Assembly: GCF_022846255.1 (NCBI RefSeq)
Contig: NZ_AP025682.1
Direction: 5' to 3' (one strand)
DNA length: 64,000 nt
Source of the DNA: Escherichia coli
GTDB taxonomy: Bacteria; Pseudomonadota; Gammaproteobacteria; Enterobacterales; Enterobacteriaceae
In this document: piece after piece, positions 12,708-57,595 of the stretch
Layout: each line of letters opens with the position of its first letter
How positions within the stretch are numbered: position 1 is the first letter of the stretch
Translations under genes and position numbers: made by a program
The notes under the pieces: model-generated
What the model was told of the DNA's origin: nothing
Databases searched by the model: none
What the model saw: the letters and a program-made list of their open reading frames with translations, nothing else

Positions 12708-13204
12708 AAAAAAATAACATATGATTTCTTACCAATGCTAAATAGTATACCCCAATCTTTATTAATGCATAGTGATGCTTAATCATTATGTTGCAGTTGA
12801 TCGACACAGGGGGACAAGAGTAGTTGTGTCACTGCCACATCACCCGGCATGCGATTTCACATCGGGATGTTCGAGAAGCATCAATGCTGCGCCCAAGATC
12901 CACCGAAAAGAAACGTGGGAATCACCGGCGGTGGGATTCATTGTCTATGCCCGTGTAGATTAGTGTGGATTTGCTGCACAGATGGTTCCGGTCTGAGAAA
13001 TGGGTAAATTCGTCGTTTACGACGGGAAGCTGCCTACACATGTTATACATCGTCTTCGTGTATCAACATGCTCCTATAAACTCGACTCAACTCACATTTT
13101 TCATTTCACATTGTAAAAACCTTTGACATGCAGAACCTTATTCTGATTCATTATATTCAACATGAAGAACTTTTGTTCCATATACAGAACTTAGTGAGAG
13201 CGAT

Positions 13205-14104: not shown

Positions 14105-14120
14105 TCACGAGGGACGCAGG

Positions 14121-15638
14121 ATGAATAACTCTCAGGTACTCAAACTCAATAATCTGGATGATGTTGTGATTGCCATAACAGAGCTTCCTGCCGGAAGCTG
14201 GTTGAAGGCAGAAAATATCGAAACGCGTGACCTTATTCCGGCCGGACACAAAATTGCTCTTCGTGATATTCCTGCTGGTAGTGCGGTTAAGCGCTATGGA
14301 CAAATTATCGGCTTTGCCACTCGTGATATCCGCCAGGGGGAACATATTCATGTTCATAATCTCGGTATGGGAAATTTTGAACGTGATTATGCCTGGGGAA
14401 TAGACAGCCATCTTCCTGAGCGGGATGTCCATCAGGATACTTTTATGGGGATCAGAAGAAAAGACGGGCGAGTGGCAACCCGTAATTTTATCGGTGTGCT
14501 GAGTTCGGTGAACTGTAGCGCAACCGTGGTCAGAGCCATTGAGGATCATTTCCGTACCCGAGGCCTGAGCGATTACCCGAATGTTGATGGTATTGTCGCA
14601 TTGCCTCAGAGCTTCGGCTGCGCCTTTGGCTCTAATACTGAAATGATGAAAGTCATGCGGAGAACGATAGCAGGCTATGCCACTCACGTAAACTTTGCCG
14701 GGATTGTGATAGTGGGACTGGGATGTGAATCATTCCAGATTAAGGACATGATGAATGCCCATGGACTACATGAAAACCCGATGTTTCATACACTGACAAT
14801 TCAGGAAAGTGGCGGAACACGCAACGCTATCGAAAAGGGTATTTCGTTTATTCTTGATATGCTGCCGGAAGCCAACAATGTTAAACGTGAACCTGTTCCA
14901 GTGTCAGAAATTATCCTGGCCCTTGAGTGTGGTGGCTCAGACAGTTACTCAGGAATTTCTGCCAACCCGGCACTCGGTTATGCAGTTGATCGTCTGGTCC
15001 GTCAGGGAGGGACGGCCATTCTGTCCGAAACATCAGAAATCTACGGAGCTGAGCATCTTCTGACACGCCGTGCTATTAATCGTGAAGTGGGAGAAAAGCT
15101 AATCCGCAGGATTAAGTGGTGGGAGGAGTACTGTAAACGTACGGGTAGTGAAATGAATAACAATCCCTCCGCAGGTAATAAAGCGGGAGGGCTGACTACT
15201 GTTCTGGAGAAATCACTGGGTGGAATCGCTAAAGCCGGGACAACCAGCTTAATGGATGTGTATGAATATGCTGAACCTGTAACAGCAAAAGGGCTTGTCT
15301 TTATGGATACCCCCGGGTACGACCCGATGGCGGTAACTGGGCAAATTGCCGGAGGCGCTAATCTACTGTGTTTTACCACGGGTAGGGGATCTGCCTTTGG
15401 AGCAAAACCCACGCCTTGTCTGAAACTGGCGACCAATAATGCATTATGGCAACGACAGCGTGATGACATGGATTTAAACTGTGGCACGATCGTTGATGGT
15501 GAAGAAACGATTGAACAGGTAGGGGAACGTATTTATCAGAGAATTATTGAGCTGGCTTCAGGTAACCGTAGCCGAAGTGAAGAACTTGGGTATGGGAGTC
15601 TGGAATTTGTTCCTTGGATAATGAACTCAATAATGTAA
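14121..15638 (+). CDS. UxaA/GarD-family sugar-acid dehydratase (altronate/galactarate dehydratase-like)
   Basis: 505-aa ORF; SD GAGGGA; N-terminal SAF-like region and C-terminal dehydratase region typical of this family (recalled). Confidence 0.75.
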   Translation: MNNSQVLKLNNLDDVVIAITELPAGSWLKAENIETRDLIPAGHKIALRDIPAGSAVKRYGQIIGFATRDIRQGEHIHVHNLGMGNFERDYAWGIDSHLPERDVHQDTFMGIRRKDGRVATRNFIGVLSSVNCSATVVRAIEDHFRTRGLSDYPNVDGIVALPQSFGCAFGSNTEMMKVMRRTIAGYATHVNFAGIVIVGLGCESFQIKDMMNAHGLHENPMFHTLTIQESGGTRNAIEKGISFILDMLPEANNVKREPVPVSEIILALECGGSDSYSGISANPALGYAVDRLVRQGGTAILSETSEIYGAEHLLTRRAINREVGEKLIRRIKWWEEYCKRTGSEMNNNPSAGNKAGGLTTVLEKSLGGIAKAGTTSLMDVYEYAEPVTAKGLVFMDTPGYDPMAVTGQIAGGANLLCFTTGRGSAFGAKPTPCLKLATNNALWQRQRDDMDLNCGTIVDGEETIEQVGERIYQRIIELASGNRSRSEELGYGSLEFVPWIMNSIM

Positions 15639-15705
15639 TAACACAGGGCAGAGTTTATCCTGCCCTGTTGAAGTAAACACCGTTTTAGATAATTAGAGGT
15701 GAATA

Positions 15706-16713
15706 ATGGAACAGAAACCTGTGTTGGGAATTTTTTTAGGTGAAGCTGCCGGTATCGGACCAGAATTGATTGCTAAGGTTGTTGCTGATGGTACTGTCTA
15801 TAAATATTGCAGACCCGTTCTGATTGGTGATGCCCGTGTTCTTGCTCTTGGACAAAAGATTGCGGGTGTTCATTTTCAATGGGATGTAATAAGTGACCCA
15901 TCAGAGGCAGACTGGAGCACAGGAAATGTACCATTACTTGATTTAAAAAATTTCAACCCCGAAAAACTAACTATGGGGACCATTGATACCGATTCAGGTT
16001 ATGCAACCGGGGAATCATTGGTAACCTGTATGTCATTACTCAAATCAGGAAAGATTGATGGTTTTGTTTTTGCTCCATTGAATAAAGAGGCGTTCAAGAA
16101 AGGGGGCTGGGATATTGAAGACGAACATTATCTGTTTGCAGAGCAGTTAGGATGCCTGGATAGACCTCGCGGCCTGTTGAATGTCCTGGATGATCTCTGG
16201 GTTTTCCGTGTGACCGGACATATTCCGTTCAAAGATATTGCCAGCCATATTACTCCAGAAAATGTTAGCCGTTCGATTCAGTTATGCTATGACACACTAC
16301 GTATGGCAGCTATTGAAAATCCGCGAATTGCAGTTGCTGCACTTAATCCCCACGCCGGGGATGGTGGAACCTGCGGCACCGAAGAAATAGACGTGCTCAT
16401 TCCAGTAATTGAAAGTTTTCGAAAGAAAGGAATGGACATGTATGGGCCAGTTCCAGGTGACACCATTTTTATTCATGCGTTTAATCATGAATATGATGCG
16501 GTTGTTACCCTGTTCCATGACCAGGGACAAATTGCTACTAAACTGCATTCCTTTGACGTGGGAATAACTGTTGCCGCAGGACTTCCGTTCGCTATTACAA
16601 CACCAGAACATGGCACTGCATTTGATATTGCAGGTAAGGGGATCGCAAAAACAATGGCTACAGAGAGGGCTATTGCCGTGGCGGCCAGAATGGCTTCTAC
16701 AACACATAAATAA
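15706..16713 (+). CDS. PdxA-family NAD-dependent dehydrogenase (PdxA2-like)
   Basis: 335-aa ORF; SD AGAGGTG; PdxA-type pattern (AALNPHAGDGG..., HDQGQIA). Confidence 0.75.
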   Translation: MEQKPVLGIFLGEAAGIGPELIAKVVADGTVYKYCRPVLIGDARVLALGQKIAGVHFQWDVISDPSEADWSTGNVPLLDLKNFNPEKLTMGTIDTDSGYATGESLVTCMSLLKSGKIDGFVFAPLNKEAFKKGGWDIEDEHYLFAEQLGCLDRPRGLLNVLDDLWVFRVTGHIPFKDIASHITPENVSRSIQLCYDTLRMAAIENPRIAVAALNPHAGDGGTCGTEEIDVLIPVIESFRKKGMDMYGPVPGDTIFIHAFNHEYDAVVTLFHDQGQIATKLHSFDVGITVAAGLPFAITTPEHGTAFDIAGKGIAKTMATERAIAVAARMASTTHK

Positions 16714-16983
16714 AAATTCATAATAGCAGATAATATAATGTCTAATCTATACAGATAGATGTGAATATTATCTGCGTTATAATAAACTGTATAAGGCTAT
16801 TATAAATAACAGTCGGTGTTTTGATAAGTTGCTGGTTGTTATATCTTTAAAACGAGTTGATGATATTTATTTACTAGATATTCAGTGCGATTATAGCAGT
16901 ACTGTATCGCAAGAAAATAGCAGTGCTGGGGAAGTAGAAAGAATAAATTGCGATTTGCATGCTCATAGATAAGGATAGATCTC

Positions 16984-18342
16984 ATGTATTCAGAATCATT
17001 TGTGATGATAAGTGGGCTTGTTGCAATAGTTATACTTATCATCTTGATCACCCGATTTAAGCTTCATCCTTTTTTTTCATTGCTTATATCGTCTGTATTT
17101 TTGGGAATTGTGAACAATATTGGAGTGGCGAAAAGTGTAGATATATTTACGCACGGGTTTGGTAGTCAACTGTCTGTCACGGGGGTAGTTATCGGCTTAG
17201 GCGCAATGTTGGGGGGGCTATTGGTACAGTCTGGAGGAGGGGACAAAATAGCCGATATTATTATTGGGTCTAGAAAAATTGTTTGGATGCCTCTGTGTAT
17301 TGGTATAGTTTCGTTAATCATCGGTCTACCTAACTTGTTTGAAGTTACTTTTGTACTGATGGTACCCCTTGTGTTCTCTATTACCAAACGTTTGGGGTTA
17401 CCTGTTCTCAGAGTTGCACTCCCAATGTCTGCAGGATTAATGACAGCTCATGCGTTATTACCGCCTGGTCCGGCAACTATTATCGCTGCTACGGCTTATG
17501 GTGCCAGCATCGGAGAAACTACGCTTTATGGGGTGATTATTAGTATACCTGTTCTACTCTCAGGAGCTTATCTTTTCCCAAAAATAATGCACAAACATCT
17601 TAACGTGGGAGAACCTTTGGCACTGAATGAAACTGAACATAGACGGGGAAATAACGAACGTCAATTATATCGCCAACCATCGCTGACTGTCGCTTTGATA
17701 ACAGTTATGATCGCCCCTTGTCTGATGATTGTTGGGACTATTGGACTTGACTTTTTGCCAAAAACAGGTGTGGTCACAGAGGTATTCCAGGCACTAGGCA
17801 ATCCAGTAATAACTCTTGGACTTGCTCTGGTTTATGCCATGATATTTCTGGGACGGGGAGTGGGTTTTAGTAATGAAGAAATCCTGTCTATCAGTAAGAA
17901 AAGTATTGTGCCTATTGTTGGTTTGTTGCTAATTATCGGTGGAGGCGGTGGATTAAAAAACATACTAACAGCAATTGGTCTAAGTGATATTATCAGTAAC
18001 TTTGCTACGGATTGGTCTATTCCTCCGCTATTATTTGCATGGCTGGTGGCAGCTATTTTCCGCATTGCGCTTGGCTCTGGAACGGTGGCGGTCTCAGCTT
18101 CAGGAGGAATCGTTGCCGCGTTACTTACAGCACATCCAGAAACTAACGCAGCTCTATTGGTACTTTCAACTACGACTGGGGCAATGATTTTTTCACATGT
18201 CAGTGATGGGGCATTTTGGTTATTCAAAGAATACTTTGGACTTAGCGTACCACAAACTATTCGCACATGGAGTTATTTAGTCACGATACAGTCCATTGTC
18301 GGGCTTATAGGTGTATTGGTTCTAGGCGCTATTCTCAGTTAG
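16984..18342 (+). CDS. GntP-family (gluconate:H+ symporter family) permease
   Basis: 452-aa polytopic ORF with GntP-type motifs (LPPGPATIIAA...; IIGGGGGLK). Confidence 0.85.
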   Translation: MYSESFVMISGLVAIVILIILITRFKLHPFFSLLISSVFLGIVNNIGVAKSVDIFTHGFGSQLSVTGVVIGLGAMLGGLLVQSGGGDKIADIIIGSRKIVWMPLCIGIVSLIIGLPNLFEVTFVLMVPLVFSITKRLGLPVLRVALPMSAGLMTAHALLPPGPATIIAATAYGASIGETTLYGVIISIPVLLSGAYLFPKIMHKHLNVGEPLALNETEHRRGNNERQLYRQPSLTVALITVMIAPCLMIVGTIGLDFLPKTGVVTEVFQALGNPVITLGLALVYAMIFLGRGVGFSNEEILSISKKSIVPIVGLLLIIGGGGGLKNILTAIGLSDIISNFATDWSIPPLLFAWLVAAIFRIALGSGTVAVSASGGIVAALLTAHPETNAALLVLSTTTGAMIFSHVSDGAFWLFKEYFGLSVPQTIRTWSYLVTIQSIVGLIGVLVLGAILS

Positions 18343-18427
18343 TGGTTCTGTATTCAATATATAAGAAAGCAATATCAAGTTTTAACATCTTTAATTTAAT
18401 AGATATAGTATTAAAGGAGAGTAATTT

Positions 18428-19693
18428 ATGTCCTCCAATGAGAAAGCAACAAATATAAGATGGAGAATATTTTTTGTACTTTTTCTTCTTGTTGTTGTCA
18501 GTATGATTGATCGAGCCTCAATATCTATAGCTATGCCTACTATCGCTAAAGATTTGGGATTAAGCGATACGATGCAGGGATTAATACTAAGCGGTTTTTT
18601 CTGGACTTATGCTTGTATGCAAATACCCGGTGGGTTTCTGGCCGATAAATTTGGGGCAAGAATTGTACTGACATGTTCTGCCATTATTTGGGGAACTGCA
18701 GAAGCCTTATTAGGATTATGCCCAACAGGTTTCGCTTTACTTGCTGCTAATCTATTGCTTGGTGCAAGTGAAGCACCTGTGTTTCCCTCAGGCGCTAGAC
18801 TTAATGCAATTTGGTTAAATAAAAATGAAAGAGCTCGTGGAGCAACATTAATGGATGCCGGAGGTCCATTTGGGGCTGCAATTGGTGGAATATTAGTAGC
18901 TGAAATGATGCTTTATTTTGCATCGTGGCGGGTTACATTCATTATCTGTGGTGTTGCGGCTATCACTCTGGGGTTAATAGCTTACTGGATTATTCGCGAC
19001 AAACCTGAAGATTCACCAAATGTAAATGATAAAGAATTAAGTATTATTAATCTCGATCGTGTTGAGCAACATATAGTAGCAGAAAACAATGAGCCATTAT
19101 TAAAGGTTATTCCTCTACGTTCTTTTATTGGTATGCTTTTAGGTCGTTGTTCATGGGCAATGTGTTTCTTTGGTTTATTAACCTGGGGACCAGGATATCT
19201 TACACGAGCATTAAATCTGGATTTAAAAGCTGTTGGTTTTGCCACAATGATTATATTTTGCGCAGGTGGTTGTGGTAGTCTTTGTGGCGGATGGCTGGCA
19301 GATAAACTCGCAAGTAAAGGATTTGGGCGAGCTAGAACGTGTAAATTTCTATTAACTGTATCAGGTATCTGTACACTAATATCATTTGCTTTATTACCAA
19401 GCATACCAGATGTAAAAACATCAATTATTCTGCTGTCCTGCGCCGCGTTTGTTTTGATGTGGGGTAGTATGTACTGGACGTTTCCTCCTTTATTAGCTCC
19501 CCGTTCCCGTGTAGCTACTGTCGGGGGCATGATGAATATGGCTGGAAGTGTTGGAGGTATTTGCATTCCACTATTGGTAGGACTTATTTTGGATGTGACG
19601 AACTCATTCAATCCTGTACTCTACTTTTTTGCTGGTTGTGCTGTAATATTTATTTTAATGACTAATATTATCGATTTACGACACGTGCGATAG
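18428..19693 (+). CDS. MFS transporter (anion:cation symporter-type, sugar-acid transporter-like)
   Basis: 421-aa ORF; SD AAGGAGAG; 12-TM MFS pattern with MIDRASISIAMPTIAKDLGLS N-terminal signature. Confidence 0.85.
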   Translation: MSSNEKATNIRWRIFFVLFLLVVVSMIDRASISIAMPTIAKDLGLSDTMQGLILSGFFWTYACMQIPGGFLADKFGARIVLTCSAIIWGTAEALLGLCPTGFALLAANLLLGASEAPVFPSGARLNAIWLNKNERARGATLMDAGGPFGAAIGGILVAEMMLYFASWRVTFIICGVAAITLGLIAYWIIRDKPEDSPNVNDKELSIINLDRVEQHIVAENNEPLLKVIPLRSFIGMLLGRCSWAMCFFGLLTWGPGYLTRALNLDLKAVGFATMIIFCAGGCGSLCGGWLADKLASKGFGRARTCKFLLTVSGICTLISFALLPSIPDVKTSIILLSCAAFVLMWGSMYWTFPPLLAPRSRVATVGGMMNMAGSVGGICIPLLVGLILDVTNSFNPVLYFFAGCAVIFILMTNIIDLRHVR

Positions 19694-19702
19694 GAGATAA
19701 AC

Positions 19703-20653
19703 ATGAACATCAAGCCACTAAATTTATATGATGGCCCTGTAATTGATGCGCATCATCACTTCTGGGATCCGATAGAAAATGATCATCCTTGGCTAAAGCC
19801 GGATGTTTTAATTCCTTTTAGATATGGTGATTATACGGCGATTAAGAAAAAATATTATCCTGAAGATTATTTTGCAGATGTAGGTGATATTAATGTCGTT
19901 GAAACCTGTTATATGGAGACTGAATGGAATCCAGCGGATCCATGTGGTGAAAGCGATTTCATTACATCAGTAGCAAAAATGACAGGTTATCCAAATGCTG
20001 TTGTCGGACAGGCTTGGTTAAATCATGATGATATAGATTCTGTGTTGAAGATGCAGAGTTCATATGAGTTGATGCGAAGCATCAGGCATAAGCCAGAGGG
20101 GCCTGATAAACCAGAGGATGTTGGATCGTATACAACTCTGATGAGTGATGAAAGATGGCGATATGGGTATTCATTACTTTCAAAATACAATCTAATGTTT
20201 GATCTGCAAACCCAGTGGTGGAATTTGCATGAAGCTGTAAAACTGGCAAATGATTTCCCAGACACAGTAATAATCCTTAATCATACAGGGCTCCCTGCAC
20301 AACGTTCTGTTGAAGGGTTGGCCGGGTGGCATTCAGCAATGGCTTCTTTGGCTGAATGTGAAAATGTGATGGTTAAAATATCGGGTATAGGTTTAAAAGG
20401 GATTCCATGGACAGTGGAGAATAATCTATGGATAATATCTGAAACGTTATCAATGTTTGGTCCTGACAGGGTCATGTTTGCAAGTAATTTCCCCGTGGAC
20501 AGTCTTTGTGGCAGTTTCAGTGATATATTTCATGGCTTTATGACTGTTTGCGAGATGAAAGGGTATTCACATGCGGCTCAGCGGAAAATGTTTCATGACA
20601 ATTGTAAGAGAATCTATCGAACAATCCCACCAAGTGAATTGAAGGAAGTATAG
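19703..20653 (+). CDS. Amidohydrolase_2-family metal-dependent hydrolase (lactonase/decarboxylase type)
   Basis: 316-aa ORF; SD AGGAG; N-terminal DAHHHFWDP metal-binding motif typical of this family. Confidence 0.7.
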   Translation: MNIKPLNLYDGPVIDAHHHFWDPIENDHPWLKPDVLIPFRYGDYTAIKKKYYPEDYFADVGDINVVETCYMETEWNPADPCGESDFITSVAKMTGYPNAVVGQAWLNHDDIDSVLKMQSSYELMRSIRHKPEGPDKPEDVGSYTTLMSDERWRYGYSLLSKYNLMFDLQTQWWNLHEAVKLANDFPDTVIILNHTGLPAQRSVEGLAGWHSAMASLAECENVMVKISGIGLKGIPWTVENNLWIISETLSMFGPDRVMFASNFPVDSLCGSFSDIFHGFMTVCEMKGYSHAAQRKMFHDNCKRIYRTIPPSELKEV

Positions 20654-20972: not shown

Positions 20973-21368
20973 ATGTCTAACACTAGTTCTAATTTTGAGA
21001 TGGCTGGCGTTTTGTTAGGAAAAGAGGTGCGTAAACGTAAAACACCTCAGGAAAAAATCGCAATTATTCAACAGACTATGGAGCCGGGCATGATGGTGTC
21101 CCACGTGGCGCGTTTGCATGGAATTCAGCCCAGTCTGTTGTTTAAGTGGAAGAAACAATACCAGGAAGGAAGCCTCACTGCTGTGGCTGCCGGTGAAGAC
21201 GTTGTTCCTGCTTCTGAACTGACCGCTGCAATAAAGCAGATTAATCAGCTTCAGCGTTTACTGGGTAAGAAAACCATGGAAGTTGAGATCCTCAAAGAAG
21301 CGGTGGAGTATGCACAATCGCGAAAATGGATAGCGCATGTGCCCTTGTTACCTTCGGACAAGGAATAG
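20973..21368 (+). CDS. IS2-group transposase OrfA
   Basis: HTH OrfA homolog of IS2 InsC ([24 protein letters not shown]...). Confidence 0.75.
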
Positions 21369-22207
21369 CCCCGGTAAGCCGTGTTCTGGGCGTGTCACGT
21401 GCGCAGTTAACATTACGGATGAAGGCATCTGATAACAAGCCAGATAAACGGCGCCAGAGGCGCGATGAGGCTGCGGATGCAGAAGTCTTATCGCGCATCC
21501 TGGATATCATTGGCGATATGCCAGCATACGGGTATCGCCGTGTCTGGGCGATACTCAGGCGGCAGTCCCGAAATGAAGGACTACCGTTCGTGAATGCAAA
21601 GCGTGTTTACCGGATAATGAGCGAAAATAGTCTGTTGTTGTTACATGACAAACCATCACGACGGCAGCGGGAACATAAAGGCCGAATATCGGTGAAGGAA
21701 AGCGACCAGCGTTGGTGTTCCGATGGCTTTGAGTTCGGTTGCGATGATGGCGAAAAACTGCGTGTTACGTTCGTCCTGGACTGTTGCGATCGTGAAGCCA
21801 TAGACTGGGTCGCAAGCACGGGAGGTTACGATAAAGCGACAGTGCAGGATGTGATGTTAGGAGCGATAGAAAAACGCTTTGGCGATAAAGTACCGGAACA
21901 GTCCATCCAGTGGCTGACAGATAACGGTTCAGCGTACAGAGCGCATGAAACACGGCAGTTCGCCAGAGAGCTGAATCTGAAGCCCTGCACAACAGCAATC
22001 AGTAGCCCTCAGAGTAATGGAATGGCAGAACGGTTCGTGAAAACGATGAAGGAAGACTACATCGCGTTCATGCCGAAACCGAATGTAAGAACGGCATTGC
22101 ATAACCTTGCAGTGGCGATCGAGCATTACAATGAAAACCATCCGCATAGTGCGTTGGGTTATCGCTCTCCGCGAGAATATCGACGTCAGCGGGTAATGTT
22201 AACTTAA
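21326..22207 (+). CDS. IS2-group transposase OrfB (DDE catalytic)
   Basis: 293-aa ORF homologous to IS2 InsD; overlaps orfA in the -1 frame. Confidence 0.75.
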
Positions 22208-22311
22208 GATACAACCCCTGTCTGGAAATAAGGGGGCAAGAACACCGTCTCAGATCTGTTTTCAATGAAAACAGATCATTCTGGAACTACTCGTCCCAGT
22301 TACTTGAAGCG

Positions 22312-23397
22312 ATGTCCATTCTTCGTCCGAACGAAAATCTTGCAGCAGCTCTCAGCGATGATTCAGAGTTCAGCAATAGCATGCAGTTCAGGTTAATCCT
22401 GGCAAAGACTGTTGATGCAGGAGCCCCGGTTCCAGCGGATCTGGCTCTGACGTGGGTGACAAACCATATTGAATACTCATTACGAACCCCCGCCCGCCGC
22501 TGTGCGAAAGAATTTGCTGCACTATTTAAACGGCGTTACACCCTTAAATACGGTGAAGGGATGGTAGTGAAGCCGAATAAAGCGCGTCTGCGTTTAGATT
22601 ACACGCCTGCAAGTCCCAGTTTGAGAGGTATTCGGCTTCCTGTTCCTGACTTGCCTGATCCAAGTGCATTGAAAGGCCCTGTTCAGAAGCTTATGACTCT
22701 TGCTGATATATGCACAGATGAACTGGATGCTTACAGTCGTTACCTTGGTAGAAAAGGCACTTCAGCAAATGATACCGCTGCAATTTTGTTGCTGCCTTCA
22801 GAAATCGTTAACGAAAGCGCAGATAAATTATTAAGTGCATTCAAACGCTGGGCTGATGACGCGATCCTCAGTAAGGGGGGAGTAGTTTCAGTTGCTGACT
22901 TCTGGTCACACATGAATGCTACCTGTCCGGCAAAGATCAACAAAAAAGAGGCCGACTTGATGCAGGCCTTTGCACAGAAAATGGGGTACTGCCTGGCTCC
23001 TGACCCCTATTACCACCACGTAAAAGCAAATGTCGATGGTGTTCTTGTTTTATTCCCTGCTGGTGAAAGTGGCCGCTTCTCTCCTTCTCCTGAATTTATC
23101 ACAGCTGTATTGACGCTCCGATTAGGTTCGGTAGTCGCCTTGATTGACAATTCTTTCGATCAAGCCGAACAGAAAGTGCTTGAGAATGCCATCAACAACA
23201 ATGTCAGCTTCAGCGATGATGAAAAGCGCTCTCTGCACGCATATTTAACGTGGCAGCTTCATACCCCGGCGAATATGACGGGAATGAAAAGCCGGATTGA
23301 ATTACTCGGTGCAGCGGAAAAATCAGCTGTGGGTAAGGTTATCGTTAGTGTCGCTTGCTCTGACGGCAGAATTACGCCTGCCGAAATCAAACTGTAG
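22312..23397 (+). pseudogene. TerB-domain protein gene remnant, 3'-truncated by the IS911-like element
   Basis: 361-aa ORF; C-terminal TerB-like repeats (VALIDNSFDQAEQKVL; VSVACSDGRITPAEI); TAG stop 23395-23397 overlaps the IS left end; frame stays open upstream into the preceding IS, so the 5' end may also be lost. Confidence 0.5.
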
Positions 23398-23464
23398 TGG
23401 CACACTGAATTTGGCCACCTGAACAGAGGTGATATGCTCACCTCAGAACAACACAGGTGCTCCA

Positions 23465-24633
<1,169 letters not shown>

Positions 24634-25056
24634 CCACTACAAATATCATTATATTGGAATAATTATAAAACTGAACAAAATGGTCAATGTAATCTGGTTA
24701 ATTTATAAATATTTACATTGCGTGATGATATTTAATTCCAGTGTTAAGTAATGTCACATGCCTATTATTGGTTACTACTTTGTAGGTGTTTTGGTTCGGC
24801 GTTAATATCATTGGTCATAATCACCTGTGAAAGTTTATTCTTGAAATGTTATAGGTATATTACTTGCAATTAAAAATGAGAAATTTATTATTATTGTGTT
24901 TTGCAAATATAATAATTAAAAATTTATTATAAATTATGATTAGAACTGACAATATAAAAGAATAATAAAACTCAATATGAAAATAATTATCATCTGGTAT
25001 GATACTTTTGCTGTTGATTACAGGAATAAAGTGTCAGAATAATATTGTTATTGGGT

Positions 25057-25084
25057 AAAAAAAGCCTCCACTATATGTGGAGGC
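25057..25084 (-). terminator. hairpin GCCTCCAC-TATAT-GTGGAGGC with flanking A/T run (terminator-like, minus strand)
   Basis: Perfect 8-bp stem, 5-nt loop; AAAAAAA on plus strand gives a U-run after the stem on the minus strand; ~700 bp downstream of int. Confidence 0.45.
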
Positions 25085-25758
25085 AAACCCTTAGATAGTT
25101 CTATTGAGGCAAGTATGTTATAAATCTGCCTTATCTTTTATAGCATATAAAGATATGTATGCTATATTGTTTTTTGAAGAAATTTTTCCAGAAATTACAG
25201 TAATACAAGAAATATTAACCGGTGTGATTTTTGGATGTTTAATAAGTACAGTGTAGTGTACTTATATTTTTGTAATAAAGATGAACGCGTCCTTTAGATA
25301 AACTGAAAAATATTAAGCATGTCTCATGTGGTTTTCTGAATCAAAACTCTTTTCAGTCTTTGGTTTTTTGTTAAAAACAGGTTTATTGCAAGGGTGTTGT
25401 TGTGAAATGTGTTTTGGTGTCGTTGTGATTTTATGGTGATAATGTGAATTTTTATCCTTTCAAGATGGCTCCCTGGACGTTAAATACAGTGGAAATTTAT
25501 ATTAAGATATAAATATAACTATTGCGTTATTTAAATTATTGTCTATTACAGCTCCAGTTAATAGAGCCTGAAGTAATTTCTTAGTATTTCATCATAAGCG
25601 TTTATCTATCGTCTCTTTCTAAATTAACCGGTCGTATTACAAGGTGCTGAATCTGATTAAGGAATGATACTTAGGGGATTATGGCTGACTTAATAATTAG
25701 ATAACTGATAAATGACTATCAGGGGGATATCGTTAAGTCAGCCTTTAAAATCAAGCGA

Positions 25759-26949
25759 TTATATAGCTGGTGACTCTTTTCGAAGAGCATCAAGGTAGTC
25801 AGCGTACCATTGCATCATTTCTCGTCTTCCTTCAAGGTAACGAGCATGGTTGTATGTACCACGAATGCTGTTTTTGTCCGTATGTGCAAGTTGCATTTCA
25901 ATCCATGCACTATTGAATCCTTGCTCGTGTAGAACAGTACTCATTGTATGACGAAATCCATGCCCGGTAGCTTTTTTGTCATAGCCAATCTTCTTCAAAA
26001 CCATATTGACGCTTGCATCGCTGATAGGCCTGTTAACATCATTTCTTCCGGCAAAGATGTATCTGTATCTTCCAGTCAGTTCTTTGAGGATTTGCAGAGA
26101 CTGGATTGCCTGATCTGACAGAGGGACGATATGCTCCTTCCTCATTTTCATCCGGGTCGGAGGAACTTCCCATATCTTTTGGGTAAAATCGATCTCACAC
26201 CATTCCCCCATACGTAATTCTACTGTTCTCAGCCCTGTGAGCATCAACAATTTTGTAGCTTCACGGGTTACAATACTGCCGGTGTAGTTTTCGAGTTTGT
26301 ATAAAAACTCTGGTAGTTCAGGAGGAAGCAGGAAAGGGTAATGTGTTCGCTTATAGCTTTTCATTGCTATAACCAGATCAGAAGCTGGATTGTATCGTGC
26401 CCGACCTGTAACAATGGCATACCGAAACACTTCACCACATCGTTGGCGAACTTTATTAGCTAGCTCGCAGGCTCCTCGGCTTTCGATACGCTGAAGAACT
26501 GCGAGAAGTTCAAGAGGTTCGATTTCACTAATGGGTCTGTTTCCAATGTAGGGAAACACATTATTTTTGAATGCTCTGTCGACATAATCAGCGTAGCTGG
26601 CAGACCAGCCTGAAACTTTTGCGTTGTACCACTCGGTGGCGATTGCGGCAAAAGTTCTTCCTTCGGAAAGGTTTTTCTCAAGATTTTCAGCTTTCTTGAC
26701 TTCACCGGGATCTTTACCATCGGCATGTATTTTCTTGGCTTCATCCCGACGTTTGCGAGCTTCAGCCAATGTAATAGTTGGATAGGTGCCAAATGATAGT
26801 TTCTTTTCCTTCCCCGCATAGTGGTACTTCATTCGCCAGTACTTTGAGCCGTTAGGATTGACCTGAAGGTAGAGCCCACCACCATCGGCAATCTTATAAA
26901 TTTTATCTTTGGGTTTGGCTGTTTCAACTTGTCGAGCTGTCAGTGGCAT
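25759..26949 (-). CDS. int: P4-type tyrosine integrase (internal copy)
   Basis: ORF 25759-26976; likely start ATG 26949 (MPLTARQVETAKPKDK...) with SD GAGG; P4-family N-terminal pattern and C-terminal catalytic R...HxxR...Y region. Confidence 0.85.
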   Translation of the reverse strand: MPLTARQVETAKPKDKIYKIADGGGLYLQVNPNGSKYWRMKYHYAGKEKKLSFGTYPTITLAEARKRRDEAKKIHADGKDPGEVKKAENLEKNLSEGRTFAAIATEWYNAKVSGWSASYADYVDRAFKNNVFPYIGNRPISEIEPLELLAVLQRIESRGACELANKVRQRCGEVFRYAIVTGRARYNPASDLVIAMKSYKRTHYPFLLPPELPEFLYKLENYTGSIVTREATKLLMLTGLRTVELRMGEWCEIDFTQKIWEVPPTRMKMRKEHIVPLSDQAIQSLQILKELTGRYRYIFAGRNDVNRPISDASVNMVLKKIGYDKKATGHGFRHTMSTVLHEQGFNSAWIEMQLAHTDKNSIRGTYNHARYLEGRREMMQWYADYLDALRKESPAI

Positions 26950-27076
26950 CTGGGGGCCTCGCAATAGATTGACCAAGATGTGCCCCTAAATAGGCCCCCA
27001 AATGTGACTTGATTTACGTTCCCCTGAGGAGAATTAAGGCGACTATTTGAGTAACATAAGTAAGGGTATGTGCTGA

Positions 27077-27640
27077 TTATAAAGGCTTTTTGTGGGGTAT
27101 GGTAGATTTCAGGAGAGGTGTGCATGGTGTCCCCTGCAGAATGATGTAAACACCTGCTGCGAAGGTAATAGATTGCATGATGGAGAACATGAACCAGTTT
27201 TTACCACCACTAAGCTCTTTCACCACATCTGCACGCGCAAACAGGCACGTCACCAGGAAAATTATGCTCATGGTAAAAGAGATAGCAACCGGCGTGTCGC
27301 GCAAGAACAGCAGACTTTTCGGCACATTCATGTCTTCAGTCGAGTGGTCTTTATTACCAAACTTGCTGCCGATGAAACCGGCCAATACATAATATAATGT
27401 TGAGAAGTGGCCGATGGCAACGTCATCAGAACCGGTCACTTTCTTCATGTACGGATGCGCAATAGCCGGGAAAAAGACCATTGCCACGCCAACAACCAAA
27501 GAGCCAACGGCTATAAGCGTAATGCCGGTCATGCCTGCTGTTGCCAGAATTACCGCTACCATCATCGACATAAACAACGTGTGATGACCGGTCAGGAAGA
27601 TAAATTTCCACGGTGTGAAACGGGCAATCAGAATGTTGAT
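27077..27640 (-). pseudogene. PTS EIIC internal fragment (ascorbate/galactitol-superfamily permease; possibly sgc-derived)
   Basis: Membrane ORF fragment resembling the UlaA/SgaT-type EIIC core; no native N- or C-terminus; abuts the rpe-like fragment in opposite orientation. Confidence 0.5.
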
Positions 27641-27642
27641 AA

Positions 27643-28014
27643 CCATCAGAACCGCTGGACTATCCCTCGGAAACGTTAGCTGAGATCCGCCATACCGGCG
27701 CACGAGCCGGGCTGGCATTTAATCCGGCGACCCCAATCGACGCCTGGCAATATCTAGCGTCTGAGCTGGACGGCGTGATGGTGATGACCTGTGAGCCCGA
27801 TGGGCACGGACAGCGGTTTATTCCCTCTATGTGCGAGAAAATCCAAAAAGTACGCACGGCTTTTCCTCAGACCGAGTGCTGGGCCGACGGTGGAATTACG
27901 CTGGCGGCAGCACAGCAACTGGCTGCAGCCGGGGGGCAGCATATGGTGATTGGGCGCGTCTTGTTCTTTTCATCTGACTATCGCGCGACCTTAGCTCAAT
28001 TCGCCACCCTGTAA
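27643..28014 (+). pseudogene. ribulose-phosphate 3-epimerase-like (sgcE-type) 3' fragment
   Basis: In-frame translation ...AGLAFNPATP...PDGHGQRFIPSMCEKIQKVR...ADGGITLAAAQQLAAAGG... matches the C-terminal ~120 aa of Rpe-family proteins; N-terminal two-thirds absent. Confidence 0.7.
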
Positions 28015-28030
28015 GAGGAGATTGTTTCTG

Positions 28031-28813
28031 ATGAGCCAACAGAGACCTGACCGTATCAAACAGATGCTGCACTACCTGTGGCAACATCGTCACCTCTCCA
28101 CACAGCAGGCCATGGAGCTTTTTGGCTATGCGGAGGCGACTGTCCGTCGTGATTTTCAGTATATTGCCAACCAGTACCCAGGAATGATCCGCGGTCACGG
28201 TTGTCTCGACTTCGACGACAGTACTGACGACAAAGAGTACGTTTTCGATGTGAAACGTACATTGCAATCTGTGGCGAAGAGAGAAATAGCCGCCCTTGCC
28301 CGAACGATGATCAAAGATGGCGACTGCTTTTTTCTCGACTCCGGCTCAACCTGCCTCGAACTGGCGAAATGCCTGGCCGATGCACGGGTGAAGGTCTCCT
28401 GCAACGACATTAAAATCGCCAATGAGCTGGGCTGTTTTCCCCATGTGGAAAGCTATATTATCGGTGGACTGATTCGCCCGGGTTATTTTTCGGTAGGAGA
28501 GAGTCTGGCGCTGGAGATGATCAATGCCTTTTCCGTAGAACGTGCGTTTATCTCCTGCGATGCGCTGTCGCTGGAGACGGGGATCACCAATGCCACCATG
28601 TTTGAGGTCCGGGTGAAAACACGGATTATTCAACGCTCGCGTGAAGTTATTCTCATGGCCGAACACTCAAAATTTGATGCCGTTGAGCCGCATGCTGTAG
28701 CAACACTCTCATGTATTAAAACGATCATTAGTGACAGCGGGTTACCTGAGACTATTGCACAGCGTTATCAGCGAGCCGGATGTCAGTTGTTTTTACCTCA
28801 TTCAATAAAGTGA
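28031..28813 (+). CDS. sgcR: DeoR-family transcriptional regulator SgcR-like
   Basis: ORF with SD AAGAGGAG 10 nt upstream of ATG 28031; DeoR-type HTH and sugar-phosphate-binding C-terminal domain; resembles K-12 SgcR as recalled. Confidence 0.8.
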   Translation: MSQQRPDRIKQMLHYLWQHRHLSTQQAMELFGYAEATVRRDFQYIANQYPGMIRGHGCLDFDDSTDDKEYVFDVKRTLQSVAKREIAALARTMIKDGDCFFLDSGSTCLELAKCLADARVKVSCNDIKIANELGCFPHVESYIIGGLIRPGYFSVGESLALEMINAFSVERAFISCDALSLETGITNATMFEVRVKTRIIQRSREVILMAEHSKFDAVEPHAVATLSCIKTIISDSGLPETIAQRYQRAGCQLFLPHSIK

Positions 28814-29115
28814 TAGGTAAGTTCGTTCGAGAGGGATTTCAAGCAAAAACAATCAATGGCACCCAATAGAAAATATTGGCGATGCGCTCGAACGAATAAA
28901 GAAGCCCTATGCGCAATCCACACGCTACGATGTTGCAACAACACTCCATCTACTTTTTATTCTCATTCACTAAATGTGGCTGTTCTGGATTCATTATTCA
29001 AAGTGTGTACAAGATCACATTTAATCACTTCATTACGGTTCAGCATGCTGAACAAAGCATATTTTCCACTATGTAATGCCGATACCATTTATTCCATGAG
29101 CAAGGAGGAGCCATT

Positions 29116-29904
29116 ATGGTTCGCAAAGGGTGTAATTCATTAGTCCGTGCTGAAAAAATATTAACCCACATTGCATGGGTTGGTATGGCAAGTTATATGG
29201 AGTTATTAAATAAATTTCAGTACCCAAAAAGCAGCCTGCTTAATTTATTGAATGTAATGGTGGAGTGTGGTTTCTTAATTAAAAACAAAAACGGCTACTA
29301 TTCACTGGGAATAAAAAACTACGAATTGGGTTGTCAGGCGTTACACCGCCAAAATATATTTGAGGTGACTAAGCGGCCAATGCAGGAGTTGTCGCTGAAA
29401 AGTGGACTGGTTTGTCATCTTGGGGCGATGGAGAGCATTTCGGCTATTTATCTCGACAAGATCGAAAGTCCGGACTCTGTACCGACGAGCAAAAGCTGGA
29501 TTGGCAAAAAACTTGAGTTGCATATTACCGCGTTGGGTAAGGCATTATTAGCCTGGAAGACACGAGAAGAATTAGATTATTTTTTAGAAGCACTCACGTT
29601 AACTCCGCATACGCGCAATACATTTACCGATAAAAAATCATTTCTGGAAGAATTACAAAAAACACGCCTTCGGGGATGGGCCATAGACAACGAAGAATCA
29701 ACCTATGGTGCGGTATGTTTAAGTATGCCGGTATTCAATATGTATAACAGAGTTAACTATGCAATCTCACTTTCTGGCGATCCGGTAATTTATTCAGGAA
29801 ATAAGATAGACAGCTATCTGGAGTTGCTCCGGAAATGCACAGGGCAAATATCATATGGGCTGGGATACAGAAACGAAAATGAGCATTTACGAAAAGGAAA
29901 CTGA
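29116..29904 (+). CDS. yjhI: IclR-family regulator (YjhI-like)
   Basis: 262-aa ORF; paralogous to the IclR at 11946-12707; stop overlaps SD of the next gene. Confidence 0.8.
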
Positions 29905-29908
29905 GGTA

Positions 29909-30814
29909 ATGAAAAAATTCAGCGGCATTATTCCACCGGTATCCAGCACGTTTCATCGTGACGGAACCCTTGATAAAAAGGCAATGCGCGAAGTTGCCGA
30001 CTTCCTGATTAATAAAGGGGTTGACGGGCTGTTTTATCTGGGTACCGGTGGTGAATTTAGCCAAATGAATACAGCCCAGCGCATGGCGCTCGCCGAAGAA
30101 GCTGTAACCATTGTCGACGGGCGAGTGCCGGTATTGATTGGCATCGGTTCCCCTTCCACTGACGAAGCGGTCAAACTGGCGCAGCATGCGCAAGCCTGCG
30201 GCGCTGATGGTATCGTCGCCATCAACCCCTACTACTGGAAAGTCGCCCCACGAAATCTTGACGACTATTACCAGCAGATCGCCCGTAGTGTCACCCTACC
30301 GGTGATCCTGTACAACTTTCCGGATCTGACGGGTCAGGACTTAACCCCGGAAATCGTGACGCGTCTGGCTCTGCAAAACGAGAATATCGTTGGCATCAAA
30401 GACACCATCGACAGCGTTGGTCACTTGCGTACGATGATCAACACAGTTAAGTCAGTACGCCCGTCGTTTTCGGTATTCTGCGGTTACGATGATCATTTGC
30501 TGAATACGATGCTGCTGGGCGGCGACGGTGCGATAACCGCCAGCGCTAATTTTGCTCCGGAACTCTCCGTCGGCATCTACCGCGCCTGGCGTGAAGGCGA
30601 TCTGGCGACTGCCGCGACGCTGAATAAAAAACTACTACAACTGCCCGCTATTTACGCCCTCGAAACACCGTTTGTCTCACTGATCAAATACAGCATGCAG
30701 TGTGTCGGGCTGCCTGTAGAGACATATTGCTTACCACCGATTCTTGAAGTTTCAGAAGAAGCCAAAGAAAAAGTCCGCGCACTGCTGTCCGCGCAAGGTA
30801 TTTTATCGGACTGA
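29909..30814 (+). CDS. yjhH: DapA-family 2-keto-3-deoxy-pentonate (xylonate-pathway) aldolase YjhH-like
   Basis: Start ATG 29909 (MKKFSGIIPPV...) with SD GAGG; GTGGEFSQ, NFPDLTGQD, GIKDT motifs. Confidence 0.85.
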   Translation: MKKFSGIIPPVSSTFHRDGTLDKKAMREVADFLINKGVDGLFYLGTGGEFSQMNTAQRMALAEEAVTIVDGRVPVLIGIGSPSTDEAVKLAQHAQACGADGIVAINPYYWKVAPRNLDDYYQQIARSVTLPVILYNFPDLTGQDLTPEIVTRLALQNENIVGIKDTIDSVGHLRTMINTVKSVRPSFSVFCGYDDHLLNTMLLGGDGAITASANFAPELSVGIYRAWREGDLATAATLNKKLLQLPAIYALETPFVSLIKYSMQCVGLPVETYCLPPILEVSEEAKEKVRALLSAQGILSD

Positions 30815-30824
30815 GGAGAGGATC

Positions 30825-32792
30825 ATGTCTGTTCGCCATATTTTTGCTGACGAAAGTCGCGATATCTACACCGTCAGAACCCACGCAGATGGCCCTGACG
30901 GAGAACTGCCTCTGACGGCGGAAATGCTCATCAACCGCCCGAGTGGGGATCTGTTCGGGATGACCATGAATGCCGGAATGGGCTGGTCTCCGGACGAGCT
31001 GGATCGGGACTGTATTCTACTGCTCAGCACACTGGGAGGGGTACGCGGGGCAGACGGTAAGCCCATCGCGCTGGCGTTGCATCAGGGCCACTACGAGCTG
31101 GATATCCAGATGAAAGCGGCTGCGGAGGTAATCAAAGCGAACCGTGTCCTGCCCTATGCCGTCTATGTTTCCGATCCGTGCGACGGACGAACTCAGGGTA
31201 CGACGGGTATGTTTGACTCGCTACCGTACCGTAATGACGCCGCCATGGTGATGCGTCGTCTTATCCGCTCTCTGCCCGATGCAAAAGCCGTCATAGGCGT
31301 GGCGAGCTGCGACAAGGGACTTCCGGCCACCATGATGGCGCTTGCCGCGCAGCATAACAAAGCGACGGTGCTGGTGCCCGGTGGCGCGACTCTACCCGCA
31401 GGGGATGGGGAAGATAACGGCAAGGTGCAGACCATCGGTGCCCGCTTCGCCAATGGCGAGTTATCACTACATGATGCCCGCCGTGCGGGTTGTAAAGCCT
31501 GTGCCTCCTCCGGCGGCGGCTGCCAATTTCTGGGCACCGCCGGGACATCACAGGTAGTAGCTGAAGGATTAGGACTGGCTATCCCGCACTCAGCACTGGC
31601 CCCATCCGGCGAACCGGTGTGGCAGGAGATAGCCAGAGCCTCCGCGAAGGCGGCGTTGAACTTATGTAAACAAGGCATCACCACCCGGGAAATACTTACC
31701 GATAAAGCGATTGAGAATGCGATGACGGTCCATGCGGCGTTCGGTGGTTCAACAAATCTGTTGCTGCATATTCCGGCGATTGCCCATCAGGCCGGCTGCC
31801 ATATTCCAACCGTTGACGACTGGATCCGCATCAACAAGCGGGTGCCCCGACTGGTAAGCGTACTCCCCAATGGTCCGGTTTATCACCCGACAGTGAATGC
31901 CTTCATGGCGGGAGGTGTGCCGGAGGTGATGCTGCATCTTCGTAGTCTGGGATTGCTGCATGAAGACGTGATGACGGTCACCGGCAGCACGCTGAAAGAA
32001 AACCTGGACTGGTGGGAGCATTCCGAACGGCGTCAGCGGTTCAAACAGCTTCTGCGCGAACAGGAGCAGATCGATGCCGACGAGGTGATCATGTCGCCAC
32101 AGCGGGCACGGGAGCGCGGCCTGACCTCAACGATCACTTTCCCGGTGGGCAATATTGCCCCGGAAGGGTCGGTTATCAAATCCACCGCCATCGATCCCTC
32201 GGTGATTGATGATCGGGGCATCTATTACCATAAAGGCGTGGCGAAGGTTTATCTGTCCGAGAAAAGCGCGATTTACGATATCAAGCACGAGAAGATTAAA
32301 GCGGGCGATATTCTGGTCATCATCGGCGTTGGCCCTTCCGGCACCGGGATGGAGGAAACCTACCAGGTCACCAGCGCCCTGAAACATCTGTCCTATGGCA
32401 AGCATGTTTCACTGATCACCGATGCGCGTTTCTCGGGTGTTTCCACGGGAGCCTGTATCGGCCACACAGGGCCAGAAGCACTGGCCGGAGGGCCAATCGG
32501 TAAATTACGCACCGGAGATATTATTGAAATTAAAATTGATTGTCGCGAGCTTCAGGGCGAAGTCAATTTCCTCGGAACCCGTAACGATGAAACATTACCC
32601 TCACGGGAGGAGGCCACCGCAATATTAAACGCCCGACCCAGTCATCAGGATTTACTTCCTGATCCTGAACTGCCAGATGATACCCGACTCTGGGCGATGC
32701 TCCAGGCGGTAAGCGGCGGGACATGGACGGGTTGTATTTATGATGTAAATAAAATCCGCACGGCCTTGCGCGATTATATGAATAAAAACTGA
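30825..32792 (+). CDS. yjhG: IlvD/EDD-family dehydratase (D-xylonate dehydratase YjhG-like)
   Basis: Start ATG 30825 (MSVRHIFADE...) with SD GAGGAGAG; ~655 aa; IlvD/EDD signature with Cys-rich cluster (CDGRTQG, SCDKGLPA). Confidence 0.85.
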   Translation: MSVRHIFADESRDIYTVRTHADGPDGELPLTAEMLINRPSGDLFGMTMNAGMGWSPDELDRDCILLLSTLGGVRGADGKPIALALHQGHYELDIQMKAAAEVIKANRVLPYAVYVSDPCDGRTQGTTGMFDSLPYRNDAAMVMRRLIRSLPDAKAVIGVASCDKGLPATMMALAAQHNKATVLVPGGATLPAGDGEDNGKVQTIGARFANGELSLHDARRAGCKACASSGGGCQFLGTAGTSQVVAEGLGLAIPHSALAPSGEPVWQEIARASAKAALNLCKQGITTREILTDKAIENAMTVHAAFGGSTNLLLHIPAIAHQAGCHIPTVDDWIRINKRVPRLVSVLPNGPVYHPTVNAFMAGGVPEVMLHLRSLGLLHEDVMTVTGSTLKENLDWWEHSERRQRFKQLLREQEQIDADEVIMSPQRARERGLTSTITFPVGNIAPEGSVIKSTAIDPSVIDDRGIYYHKGVAKVYLSEKSAIYDIKHEKIKAGDILVIIGVGPSGTGMEETYQVTSALKHLSYGKHVSLITDARFSGVSTGACIGHTGPEALAGGPIGKLRTGDIIEIKIDCRELQGEVNFLGTRNDETLPSREEATAILNARPSHQDLLPDPELPDDTRLWAMLQAVSGGTWTGCIYDVNKIRTALRDYMNKN

Positions 32793-32898
32793 AAGCAAAA
32801 ATAAAAATATCCAGACGCCTGAATTATCCGGTTACGCATTATTCATCCTGTGCGCAGCCGGATAATGACGGCTCGTTACCCTATAATGAGAGGACGTT

Positions 32899-34248
32899 AT
32901 GCCACTAATTATCGTTGTGGCAGGGATTGCTTTACTCCTGCTTTTAACCATAAAAATTAAGCTTAATACGTTTGTTTCGTTAATTATTGTCTCGATTGCT
33001 GTCGCCATCGCCAGTGGTATGGATTTGAGTAAAGTCGTCACCTCAGTCGAATCCGGACTTGGCGGTACGCTGGGCCATATTGGTTTGATATTTGGCTTCG
33101 GTGTTATGCTCGGTCGCTTGCTGGCCGATGCGGGGGGGGCGCAGCGAATAGCGCTGACCATGCTGAATTATTTCGGGAAAAATAAACTTGACTGGGCAGT
33201 GGTCTGTTCGGCGTTTATTGTCGGTATCGCACTTTTTTTCGAAGTCGGTTTAATTCTTCTGGTACCTATTTTATTCGCTATTGCCCGTGAAGCAAAAATA
33301 TCACCGATGTTTATGTGTGTGCCGATGCTTTCCGGTTTGCTGGTCGCACACGGTTTTTTGCCGCCGCACCCCGGCCCGACAGTAATCGCCAGAGAATATG
33401 GTGCTGATGTAGGATTGGTACTGATATACGGTATCATTGTCGGCATTCCAACCTTTATTCTTTGCGGCCCGGTATTGAATAAATTCTGCCAGCGCATTAT
33501 TCCGGAAGCCTTTAAAAAAGAGGGGAATATAGCCTCTCTCGGCGCGACCCGCCGGTTCAGCGAAAGCGAAATGCCTGGCTTTGGGATCAGTTTTCTCACG
33601 GCAATGCTGCCGGTGATCCTGATGGCGGTTGTCACCATCATCCAGATGACTCATGCCAAAAGTGCCGCGGATTCAGGCTTATTCTACAACGTGCTACTGT
33701 TCTTAGGTAATTCGACGATCGCCATGCTGATTTCACTGCTGTTCGCGATCTATACCATGGGCCTGGGGCGCGGGAAAACAATCCCTGACCTGATGGATTC
33801 TTGCGGAAAAGCTATCGCGGGTATTGCCGGTCTGCTGCTGATTATCGGTGGTGGTGGTGCATTCAAGCAAGTTCTCATCGACTCTGGCGTTGGTCAGTAT
33901 ATTTCCACCCTGGTTTCGGGTATGGATATTAACCCGATCCTGATGGCCTGGGGCGTGGCCGCATTCCTGCGTATTTGTCTGGGTTCAGCCACCGTCGCGG
34001 CGATCTCTACCGCCGGTCTGGTCATCCCATTGTTGGCAGTACATCCCAATACCAACCTGGCCTTGATTACGCTGGCTACCGGTGCCGGATCCTGTATTTG
34101 TTCTCACGTTAACGATGCCAGTTTCTGGATGATTAAAGACTTTTTTGGCCTGACCACCAAAGAAACGCTGTTATCCTGGACGCTGATGTCCACACTCTTA
34201 TCCATCAGTGGGCTGATTTTTATTCTGCTCACCAGCTTAGTTTTATAA
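32899..34248 (+). CDS. yjhF: GntP-family permease (YjhF-like)
   Basis: 449-aa polytopic ORF; SD GAGAGGA; GntP motifs ([20 protein letters not shown]). Confidence 0.85.
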
Positions 34249-50285: not shown

Positions 50286-51515
<1,230 letters not shown>

Positions 51516-52049
51516 TCAGGTGGCCAAACTTACTGTGCCACTACAAATGTATACGAATTGTCATATTCAGACATTTGGGACTTAGATTAGTTGATAGGCA
51601 AAGTATTATAAATCATATTATACTTGTCTGCTTATACGTTGTTGTAAGTATAACATTACTCTATAAGGCGTTCTGACGCTAGGCGCGTTTTTTTATGTTT
51701 ACCCATATTTGGGTAAGAATTATTGTCGATAATTTTATTTTCCCATTTATATAATACTGTACGGCCGACGCCAATGCTCCAGGTGATGTCACTGGCTGAT
51801 CTCGTCGTGTACAAGCACCATGACAGCCCGATGTATCGTTTCTGGTTCAAAGAGAGCATCACGCTTGGTCTTACTGTTAAATATACGCTGTTTGTCGGAA
51901 TAAGGTTCATTAATTCAGCATGTGAGTGCATTATTATAAGGATAATCCAGAGTTCTGCTGGTAAATACCAAGCAGTTGCGATGGTTAAAATAATGCTCAA
52001 CTCTACACTATTTGCAAAGCAGATAGTGTGCTAAGCAAAATAAAAAACA

Positions 52050-57574: not shown

Positions 57575-57595
57575 ATTGTTTCCTCATGCATTTGT

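Follow-up and report, generated by a model that had tools for sequence, protein, structure and literature searches.

The window, a stretch of 64,000 nucleotides of Escherichia coli DNA, holds two truncated genes that abut each other on opposite strands, next to an intact regulator gene and an intact D-xylonate module. The following features were located in it:

25762 to 26952, minus strand: P4-like tyrosine integrase of an argW-type island, 396 aa (Pfam domains Arm-DNA-bind_3, Phage_int_M and Phage_integrase)
27077 to 27718, minus strand: chimeric 213-aa ORF running through both junctions (from the ORF list)
27125 to 27139, minus strand: last 15 nt of tRNA-Arg(CCU) argW, TGGTGTCCCCTGCAG, remnant of a 19-bp att repeat (exact single match in the window)
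27132 to 27139: junction A, an 8-bp block, CCCTGCAG, common to the argW att core and the EIIC gene (four-way alignment)
27140 to 27646, minus strand: internal fragment of a PTS EIIC gene of the ascorbate (UlaA/SgaT) family, a pseudogene remnant without either terminus (translation, Pfam, alignment)
27647: junction B, where the deletion joined EIIC' to 'sgcE over 1 nt (C) of microhomology (alignment; both BLAST alignments include this base)
27649 to 28014, plus strand: 3' fragment of sgcE, codons 90-210 and the stop, a pseudogene without the N-terminal 89 codons (translation, Pfam, K-12 alignment)
28031 to 28813, plus strand: sgcR, intact regulator of the DeoR family, 260 aa (HTH_DeoR and DeoRC domains; colinear with K-12 sgcR)
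29116 to 34248, plus strand: yjhI, yjhH (29909-30814), yjhG (30825-32792) and yjhF (32899-34248), the intact D-xylonate module (full-length ORFs)
61022 to 61097, minus strand: tRNA-Phe (pheV), the chromosomal anchor of the island (ARAGORN)

ARAGORN detected the tRNA-Phe as the sole tRNA in the window. Next to it lie yqgA, speC and an integrase. The same neighbourhood exists in strain 3CM, which was colinear with the window at 27132-50287 and 59540-64000. The tRNA-Phe and the yqgA/speC flank thus place the whole locus in a pheV island. In K-12, sgcXBCQAE, sgcR, yjhIHGF and yjhU are located at leuX in the KpLE2 phage-like element (PMC3032704, PMC13279387). The tRNA-Leu leuX and the KpLE2 integrase, which characterize that element, do not accompany the genes in the window.

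The region 27649-28011 on the plus strand translated into 121 amino acids, with the stop codon following up to 28014. The product matched the Pfam profile PF00834 (Ribul_P_3_epim) with E=1e-36 over profile positions 90-198 of 198 and was 93% identical to residues 90-210 of SgcE of K-12. The match and the position directly upstream of sgcR, as in K-12, assign the fragment to SgcE of the ribulose-phosphate 3-epimerases. A complete (beta/alpha)8 barrel of about 210 aa is not encoded, as profile positions 1-89 are missing, and in related genomes PGAP labels the fragment 'epimerase, incomplete, missing N-terminus'. The window between 27647 and 35679 was one colinear match to the K-12 sgc/yjh region with 94.7% nucleotide identity in BLAST, leading from the sgcE fragment (codons 90-210) through sgcR, yjhI, yjhH, yjhG and yjhF to yjhU. 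This was the sole BLAST match of the window to K-12 sgc/yjh; no other sgc sequence was found in the window, which lacks sgcX, B, C, Q and A and the first 89 codons of sgcE. The yjhIHGF module was colinear with that of SCEC020001 and 98.9% identical. The window therefore agrees with the sequence-only reading in several parts: the last ~120 codons of sgcE lie on the plus strand, sgcR is intact with both DeoR domains, and the deletion that removed the rest of the sgc operon spared sgcR and left yjhIHGF as full-length ORFs downstream. The homology to K-12 stops at window position 35679 (K-12 4519240) exactly at the edge of an IS1F element, downstream of yjhU in K-12. Hence, the sgcE-yjhU block acts as a module, delimited on its other side in K-12 by an insertion sequence. 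In two genomes, AH25 (segment L012 22768) and Z1323MEC0001 (segment L011 16769), yjhH is cut at the same base, corresponding to window position 30416, and joined to a zinc-ribbon gene module. This cut is another common deletion or recombination scar of the island family; yjhH is intact in the window.

On the minus strand, 27140-27646 is a stop-free frame of 169 aa. It matched the profile PF03611 (EIIC-GAT) with E=8e-54 over positions 98-264 of 394 only, thus it is an internal piece of a PTS permease, as had been read from the letters. The closest intact protein, WP_000345347 of SK1144, has 418 aa and the annotation 'PTS ascorbate transporter subunit IIC'; the fragment corresponds to its residues 105-273 with 164 of 169 positions identical (97%), and the DNA was 97.9% identical to the intact SK1144 gene. 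The parent operon consists of IIA-IIB-IIC with a divergent regulator of the LacI family and resides on accessory islands; besides SK1144, AH25 carries it (WP_001767857). In contrast to this operon, the window keeps only the middle 169 codons of EIIC: BLAST found neither the rest of the EIIC gene nor IIB, IIA or the LacI regulator in the 64 kb, so that a full-length permease of ~418 aa with cognate IIB and IIA is missing. The sgcC gene was considered as source of the EIIC piece and rejected, since BLASTP against K-12 SgcC (b4304) yielded no detectable similarity (best E=3.7 over 14 residues). Judged by this comparison the fragment is not the galactitol-type EIIC of the sgc operon, while the profile match and the intact annotated member assign it to the ascorbate (UlaA/SgaT) type. 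Hence, the EIIC piece comes from a PTS other than that of the neighbouring sgc genes, of ascorbate type and unrelated to sgcC. A 1.2-kb query, which comprised the fragments of EIIC and sgcE together with the start of sgcR, gave matches in 2541 of 5426 complete E. coli genomes, and among the matches listed most span the EIIC part only. The ascorbate-type EIIC gene is widespread in E. coli.

Neither fragment is predicted to give a working protein. Across both junctions extends, however, the open frame of 213 codons at 27077-27718, which has an ATG start and several predicted transmembrane stretches, matches PF03611 strongly and is called by gene callers. That the fusions have created a new functional membrane protein is nevertheless very improbable. 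The ORF passes from antisense sgcE through the EIIC fragment into antisense DNA of the att/integrase flank, hence its first 24 and last 21 codons are read-through of unrelated DNA, and only the middle 40% of the EIIC fold is present in between. The window offers no IIA or IIB partner, the parent ORF is a pseudogene in the PGAP annotation, and just 3 public assemblies have the exact product on record, each with DNA 100% identical to the window. The chimeric ORF is a by-product of the joints and not a gene family. Position 27077, taken before as the start of the decayed locus, is only the stop codon of this frame; EIIC-derived DNA ends at about 27132-27139. The same assemblies bear on the quality of the sequence. 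Mosaic regions rich in insertion sequences are prone to misassembly, but an assembly chimera is hardly conceivable as the origin of the joints: junction B was present in 11 finished genomes, and both junctions occurred together in three independent assemblies at 100% identity. The joints are thus real.

Both remnants at junction B lack the 5' end and face outward from the joint, the pattern left by one deletion between divergently oriented genes. Such an arrangement was found in AH25. This genome carries an ascorbate-type PTS operon and the sgc operon, both intact, on one leuX island, colinear with the window, in the order transposase remnant, EIIC, IIB and IIA on the minus strand, a LacI-family regulator on the plus strand, about 16 kb of cargo, and then sgcX', sgcB, C, Q, A, E, sgcR and yjhI on the plus strand. 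The window aligned plus/plus to AH25 on both sides of the joint, with 97.7% identity of 27132-27647 to the EIIC gene (segment L013 8223-8738) and 97.4% identity of 27647-30416 to the sgcE-yjhH region (segment L012 20000-22768); thus both flanks show a similar divergence from AH25. The AH25 DNA between the two alignments has a length of 22,151 bp. A second version of the linkage of ascorbate PTS and sgc, with a shorter spacer, is provided by SK1144 and Z1323MEC0001 jointly. The ancestral deletion would have been somewhere around 13-22 kb long, a length that depends on the model because the AH25 arrangement is at leuX and not at pheV, is about 2.5% diverged and may not be that of the true ancestor.

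One deletion without an inversion would suffice to account for the EIIC'/'sgcE joint, given the orientation of the genes in AH25. The parental sequences share one base at junction B, or CAT(G)C if a gap of 1 nt is allowed, and the alignment of the joint revealed no IS element. From the 1-nt overlap and the lack of an insertion sequence we infer a plain illegitimate recombination. The inversion that had been read into the opposite strands of the two fragments was rejected: the AH25 operons are natively divergent and colinear with the window, and a single deletion of the 22,151 bp reproduces the joint. With it falls the view that a K-12-like sgc operon decayed in place, its sgcC having been inverted and then partly deleted together with sgcE. 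The colinearity of the sgcE fragment, sgcR and yjhIHGF with K-12 fits that course of events, and both types of EIIC belong to the broad Pfam family PF03611. Yet it is extremely improbable, as the fragment has no similarity to K-12 SgcC and is 97% identical to a different, ascorbate-type EIIC, as AH25 has the needed orientation without an inversion, and as the locus lies at pheV and not at leuX. Of the sequence-only reading, which had described the pieces as joined at ~27640 and both derived from a decayed sgc locus, the direct abutment of real gene remnants and the origin of the epimerase piece from sgcE hold. The position has to be shifted to 27647, the EIIC piece is not from sgc, and the scar was inherited within a pheV island rather than formed by local decay of a K-12-like leuX/KpLE2 locus. 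The alignment to the intact K-12 operon, which had been proposed for mapping the breakpoints, gave one of them, 27647. For the EIIC half of the locus the outcome is the one named beforehand as a refutation, since this fragment is not sgc-derived.

Junction B was found in identical form in 11 of 5426 complete E. coli genomes, with 99.6% identity of the DNA. The carriers include SCEC020001, O157:H16 Santai and the mink strains 3CM and 4FM, and the joint resides in the same pheV-island context as in the window. In the 11 complete genomes PGAP annotates both pieces as incomplete pseudogenes. Ten further assemblies with the same gene order were obtained by a look-up of the small neighbouring transposase-remnant ORF, which is indexed in 246 blocks of the searched collection and returns only the uninterrupted arrangement. 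The scar is inherited and occurs in many draft assemblies as well as in the 11 complete genomes. Alleles of the sgcE fragment and sgcR with at least 99% identity to the window were present only together with the scar, whereas all intact sgcE copies were at most 97.3% identical; in this divergence, and in its location at pheV instead of leuX, the window differs from the K-12 sgc locus. The search for this allele reported a single place in each scar-carrying genome, thus a second sgcR appears to be absent there. In the 11 genomes, the top-listed match at the best place of each showed an EIIC remnant of 951 bp, which kept the C-terminus and the downstream transposase remnant. In the window, in contrast, EIIC is cut again by the argW att/integrase end. 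The C-terminus kept in these best-place matches indicates that the second cut came later than the deletion. In the mink strains, an IS1A has also inserted into yjhI of the same island (segment L005 17394-18316 of 3CM), so the decay of the module is ongoing in related genomes.

The second breakpoint of the EIIC piece, at the argW att core and its integrase, makes the fragment 'internal' and had gone unnoticed in the sequence-only reading. The integrase was 99.6-100% identical to integrases adjoining tRNA-Arg argW in 239 E. coli genomes. It is a tyrosine integrase with an arm-binding domain beside the 3' end of its target tRNA, of which 15 nt were found 150 bp from the integrase start. An insertion in an intact tRNA-Arg gene is not present, however: ARAGORN detected no tRNA gene at 27.1 kb, where 15 of the 75 nt of argW are followed by EIIC DNA, and a tRNA-Arg(cct) at the homologous place of 14EC033. 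The window from 24642 to 27139 was 99.4-100% identical to the integrase end of argW islands, and the integrase flank, including bases 27077-27131, was 100% identical to the argW islands of 14EC033 and AHB24 up to base 27139. The homology to argW islands stops at 27139-27142, that to EIIC begins at 27132, and the alignment places the crossover of junction A within the shared 8-bp CCCTGCAG. The 68-kb argW island of AHB24 ends distally in the direct repeat TGGTGTCCCCTGCAGGAAT, which defines an att identity block of 19 bp. In the EIIC gene the break reads ...GCGCACA-CCCTGCAG-AATGATG, and the site CCCTGCAG-AATGA agrees with the attP sequence CCCTGCAGGAATGA in 13 of 14 positions. The two sites compared are:

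attP of the argW-type integrase: GCATGGTGTCCCCTGCAGGAATGAAATT
candidate pseudo-att site in EIIC: CATGCGCACACCCTGCAGAATGATGTAAAC

The left 27 kb of the window share blocks with the AHB24 argW island at 162-5056, 22245-23392 and 24642-27142, are interrupted by IS3-family elements and continue beyond the left window edge. No second copy of the argW att core was found in the window within 2 mismatches, and the nested island extends past the left edge. In complete E. coli genomes, the outer 25 kb on either side of the window had only piecewise matches, and none of the 5426 spanned junction A. So far it was seen only in the window and in three public assemblies.

For a break inside the 19-bp core, 150 bp from an intact integrase gene, action of the integrase at a pseudo-att site is the best explanation. 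Random breakage would not be expected to hit such a core in an island of at least 27 kb. We give even odds to the proposal that the argW-specific P4-like integrase used a pseudo-att site in the dead PTS gene and so nested a tRNA-type island inside the pheV island. We know of no described secondary site for an argW-type P4-like integrase. Rejected as origin of junction A was a simple rearrangement, deletion or inversion, between argW and pheV at their native loci: the remnants of both tRNA genes share one orientation, and with this orientation and with a joint in the order of an insertion or a circle, neither event at the native loci should yield the junction. The other course to be weighed is a microhomology-mediated joining at CCCTGCAG independent of the integrase, as part of a larger rearrangement or of the horizontal acquisition of a mosaic segment. 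The identity at the joint comprises only 8 bp, which would equally serve such end joining, and the surrounding 27 kb are heavily rearranged by IS3-family elements. The missing reciprocal junction speaks in its favour, too. An integration at the pseudo-att site would leave a far joint ...CACCATGCGCACA-CCCTGCAG-GAAT..., followed by the 3' 430 bp of EIIC and the transposase remnant. This joint of the EIIC 3' part, CCCTGCAGGAAT and the far end of the island was not present in the window, off whose left edge the nested island runs; two predicted C-terminal EIIC ORFs had no exact-protein match, where alleles may differ, and species-representative genomes contained neither the predicted reciprocal joint nor junction A itself, so that their silence on the former carries no weight. 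Against joining without the integrase stand the position of the break, exactly within the att core used by this integrase family, the intact integrase gene close by and the resemblance of the EIIC site to attP beyond the 8 bp. We regard joining without the integrase as rather unlikely, though a serious alternative to recombination by the integrase at the pseudo-att site. The latter has precedents in secondary-site integration of SGI1 (PMC2297512) and in a composite genomic island of Shewanella (PMC8978831). Like these, the window presents an integrase-proximal att end joined to a target that is not a tRNA gene, a short identity block with the att core and one island inside another; it differs from them in that the reciprocal junction was not seen and the event is proposed from the DNA sequence.

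Taken together, the region is very probably a non-functional scar, left in a mosaic, tRNA-linked genomic island when DNA was joined twice in succession. The ancestor island would have carried an ascorbate-type PTS operon, IIA-IIB-IIC on one strand with its LacI regulator, as still present in AH25, and some 13-22 kb away, on the other strand, sgcX-B-C-Q-A-E, sgcR, yjhIHGF and yjhU. In a first step, an illegitimate deletion may have taken out both promoters, the 5' parts of both genes and all DNA between them in one event; it would have extended from codon ~104 of EIIC to codon ~89 of sgcE and involved about 1 nt of microhomology. The joint is read from the alignments, the mechanism we infer. 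This would have left EIIC' tail-to-tail with 'sgcE next to intact sgcR and xylonate genes, and junction B would then have been inherited in the pheV island of the 11 complete genomes and many drafts. In a second step, confined to the lineage of the window, the integrase-proximal att end of an argW-type P4-like island would have been joined to the middle of EIIC', displacing or removing the 3' third of the gene. Here, too, the junction is an observed one, and its most likely mechanism would be an integrase-catalysed recombination at the pseudo-att site, either by integration of the island or by an Int-mediated deletion from a nearby insertion.

The consequence is the loss of two PTS uptake systems and an epimerase, while SgcR is kept as an orphan regulator. 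The feature is ordinary island decay and not a new system, and the scar is already annotated in finished genomes. Its significance is small. It corrects an inference of the annotation style, as the EIIC remnant comes from a different PTS than the adjacent sgc genes and one deletion suffices, and the EIIC'/'sgcE joint is a clean marker for a lineage of pheV islands common to 11 finished genomes. Mildly new is only the end of an argW-type island that probably became nested at a look-alike att site, and events of this sort are known already. The second joint illustrates, as a small case from nature, the assembly of composite islands, probably via the integrase at the look-alike site. If the use of a pseudo-att site is true, it would represent a natural, datable case in which capture at a secondary site built a composite island in E. 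coli.

Other parts of the window also deviate from the related islands. About 9 kb beside the pheV integrase (50287-59540) were not colinear with 3CM; genomes matching this part have annotations for a second integrase, an enolase-like protein, a GntR regulator and an SDR oxidoreductase. This part could represent another element at pheV, either nested or in tandem. The region 11946-20653 holds a cluster for sugar-acid catabolism with an IclR-type regulator, an aldolase of the DHDPS family, an enzyme resembling UxaA/galactarate dehydratase, a PdxA-family dehydrogenase, GntP and MFS transporters and a lactonase-like amidohydrolase. With about 87% identity to the nearest copies in complete E. coli genomes, this cluster is a diverged allele or a foreign import. 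Of the 2.3-kb gene of AHB24, a TerB-family fragment (22312-23397) covers only 1.1 kb; it is flanked by an IS3-family transposase ORF (21326-22207) on one side and an IS911/IS600-like element (23429-24633) on the other. The region 21326-24640 looks like an IS-mediated erosion of the TerB-ATPase-helicase module that is intact in AHB24. Near the left edge, 2143-2803 is an inverted copy, with 81% identity, of the sequence just left of the EIIC remnant in SCEC020001 (segment L001 10415-11078), probably a paralogous backbone module of CP4-type islands rather than the displaced flank.
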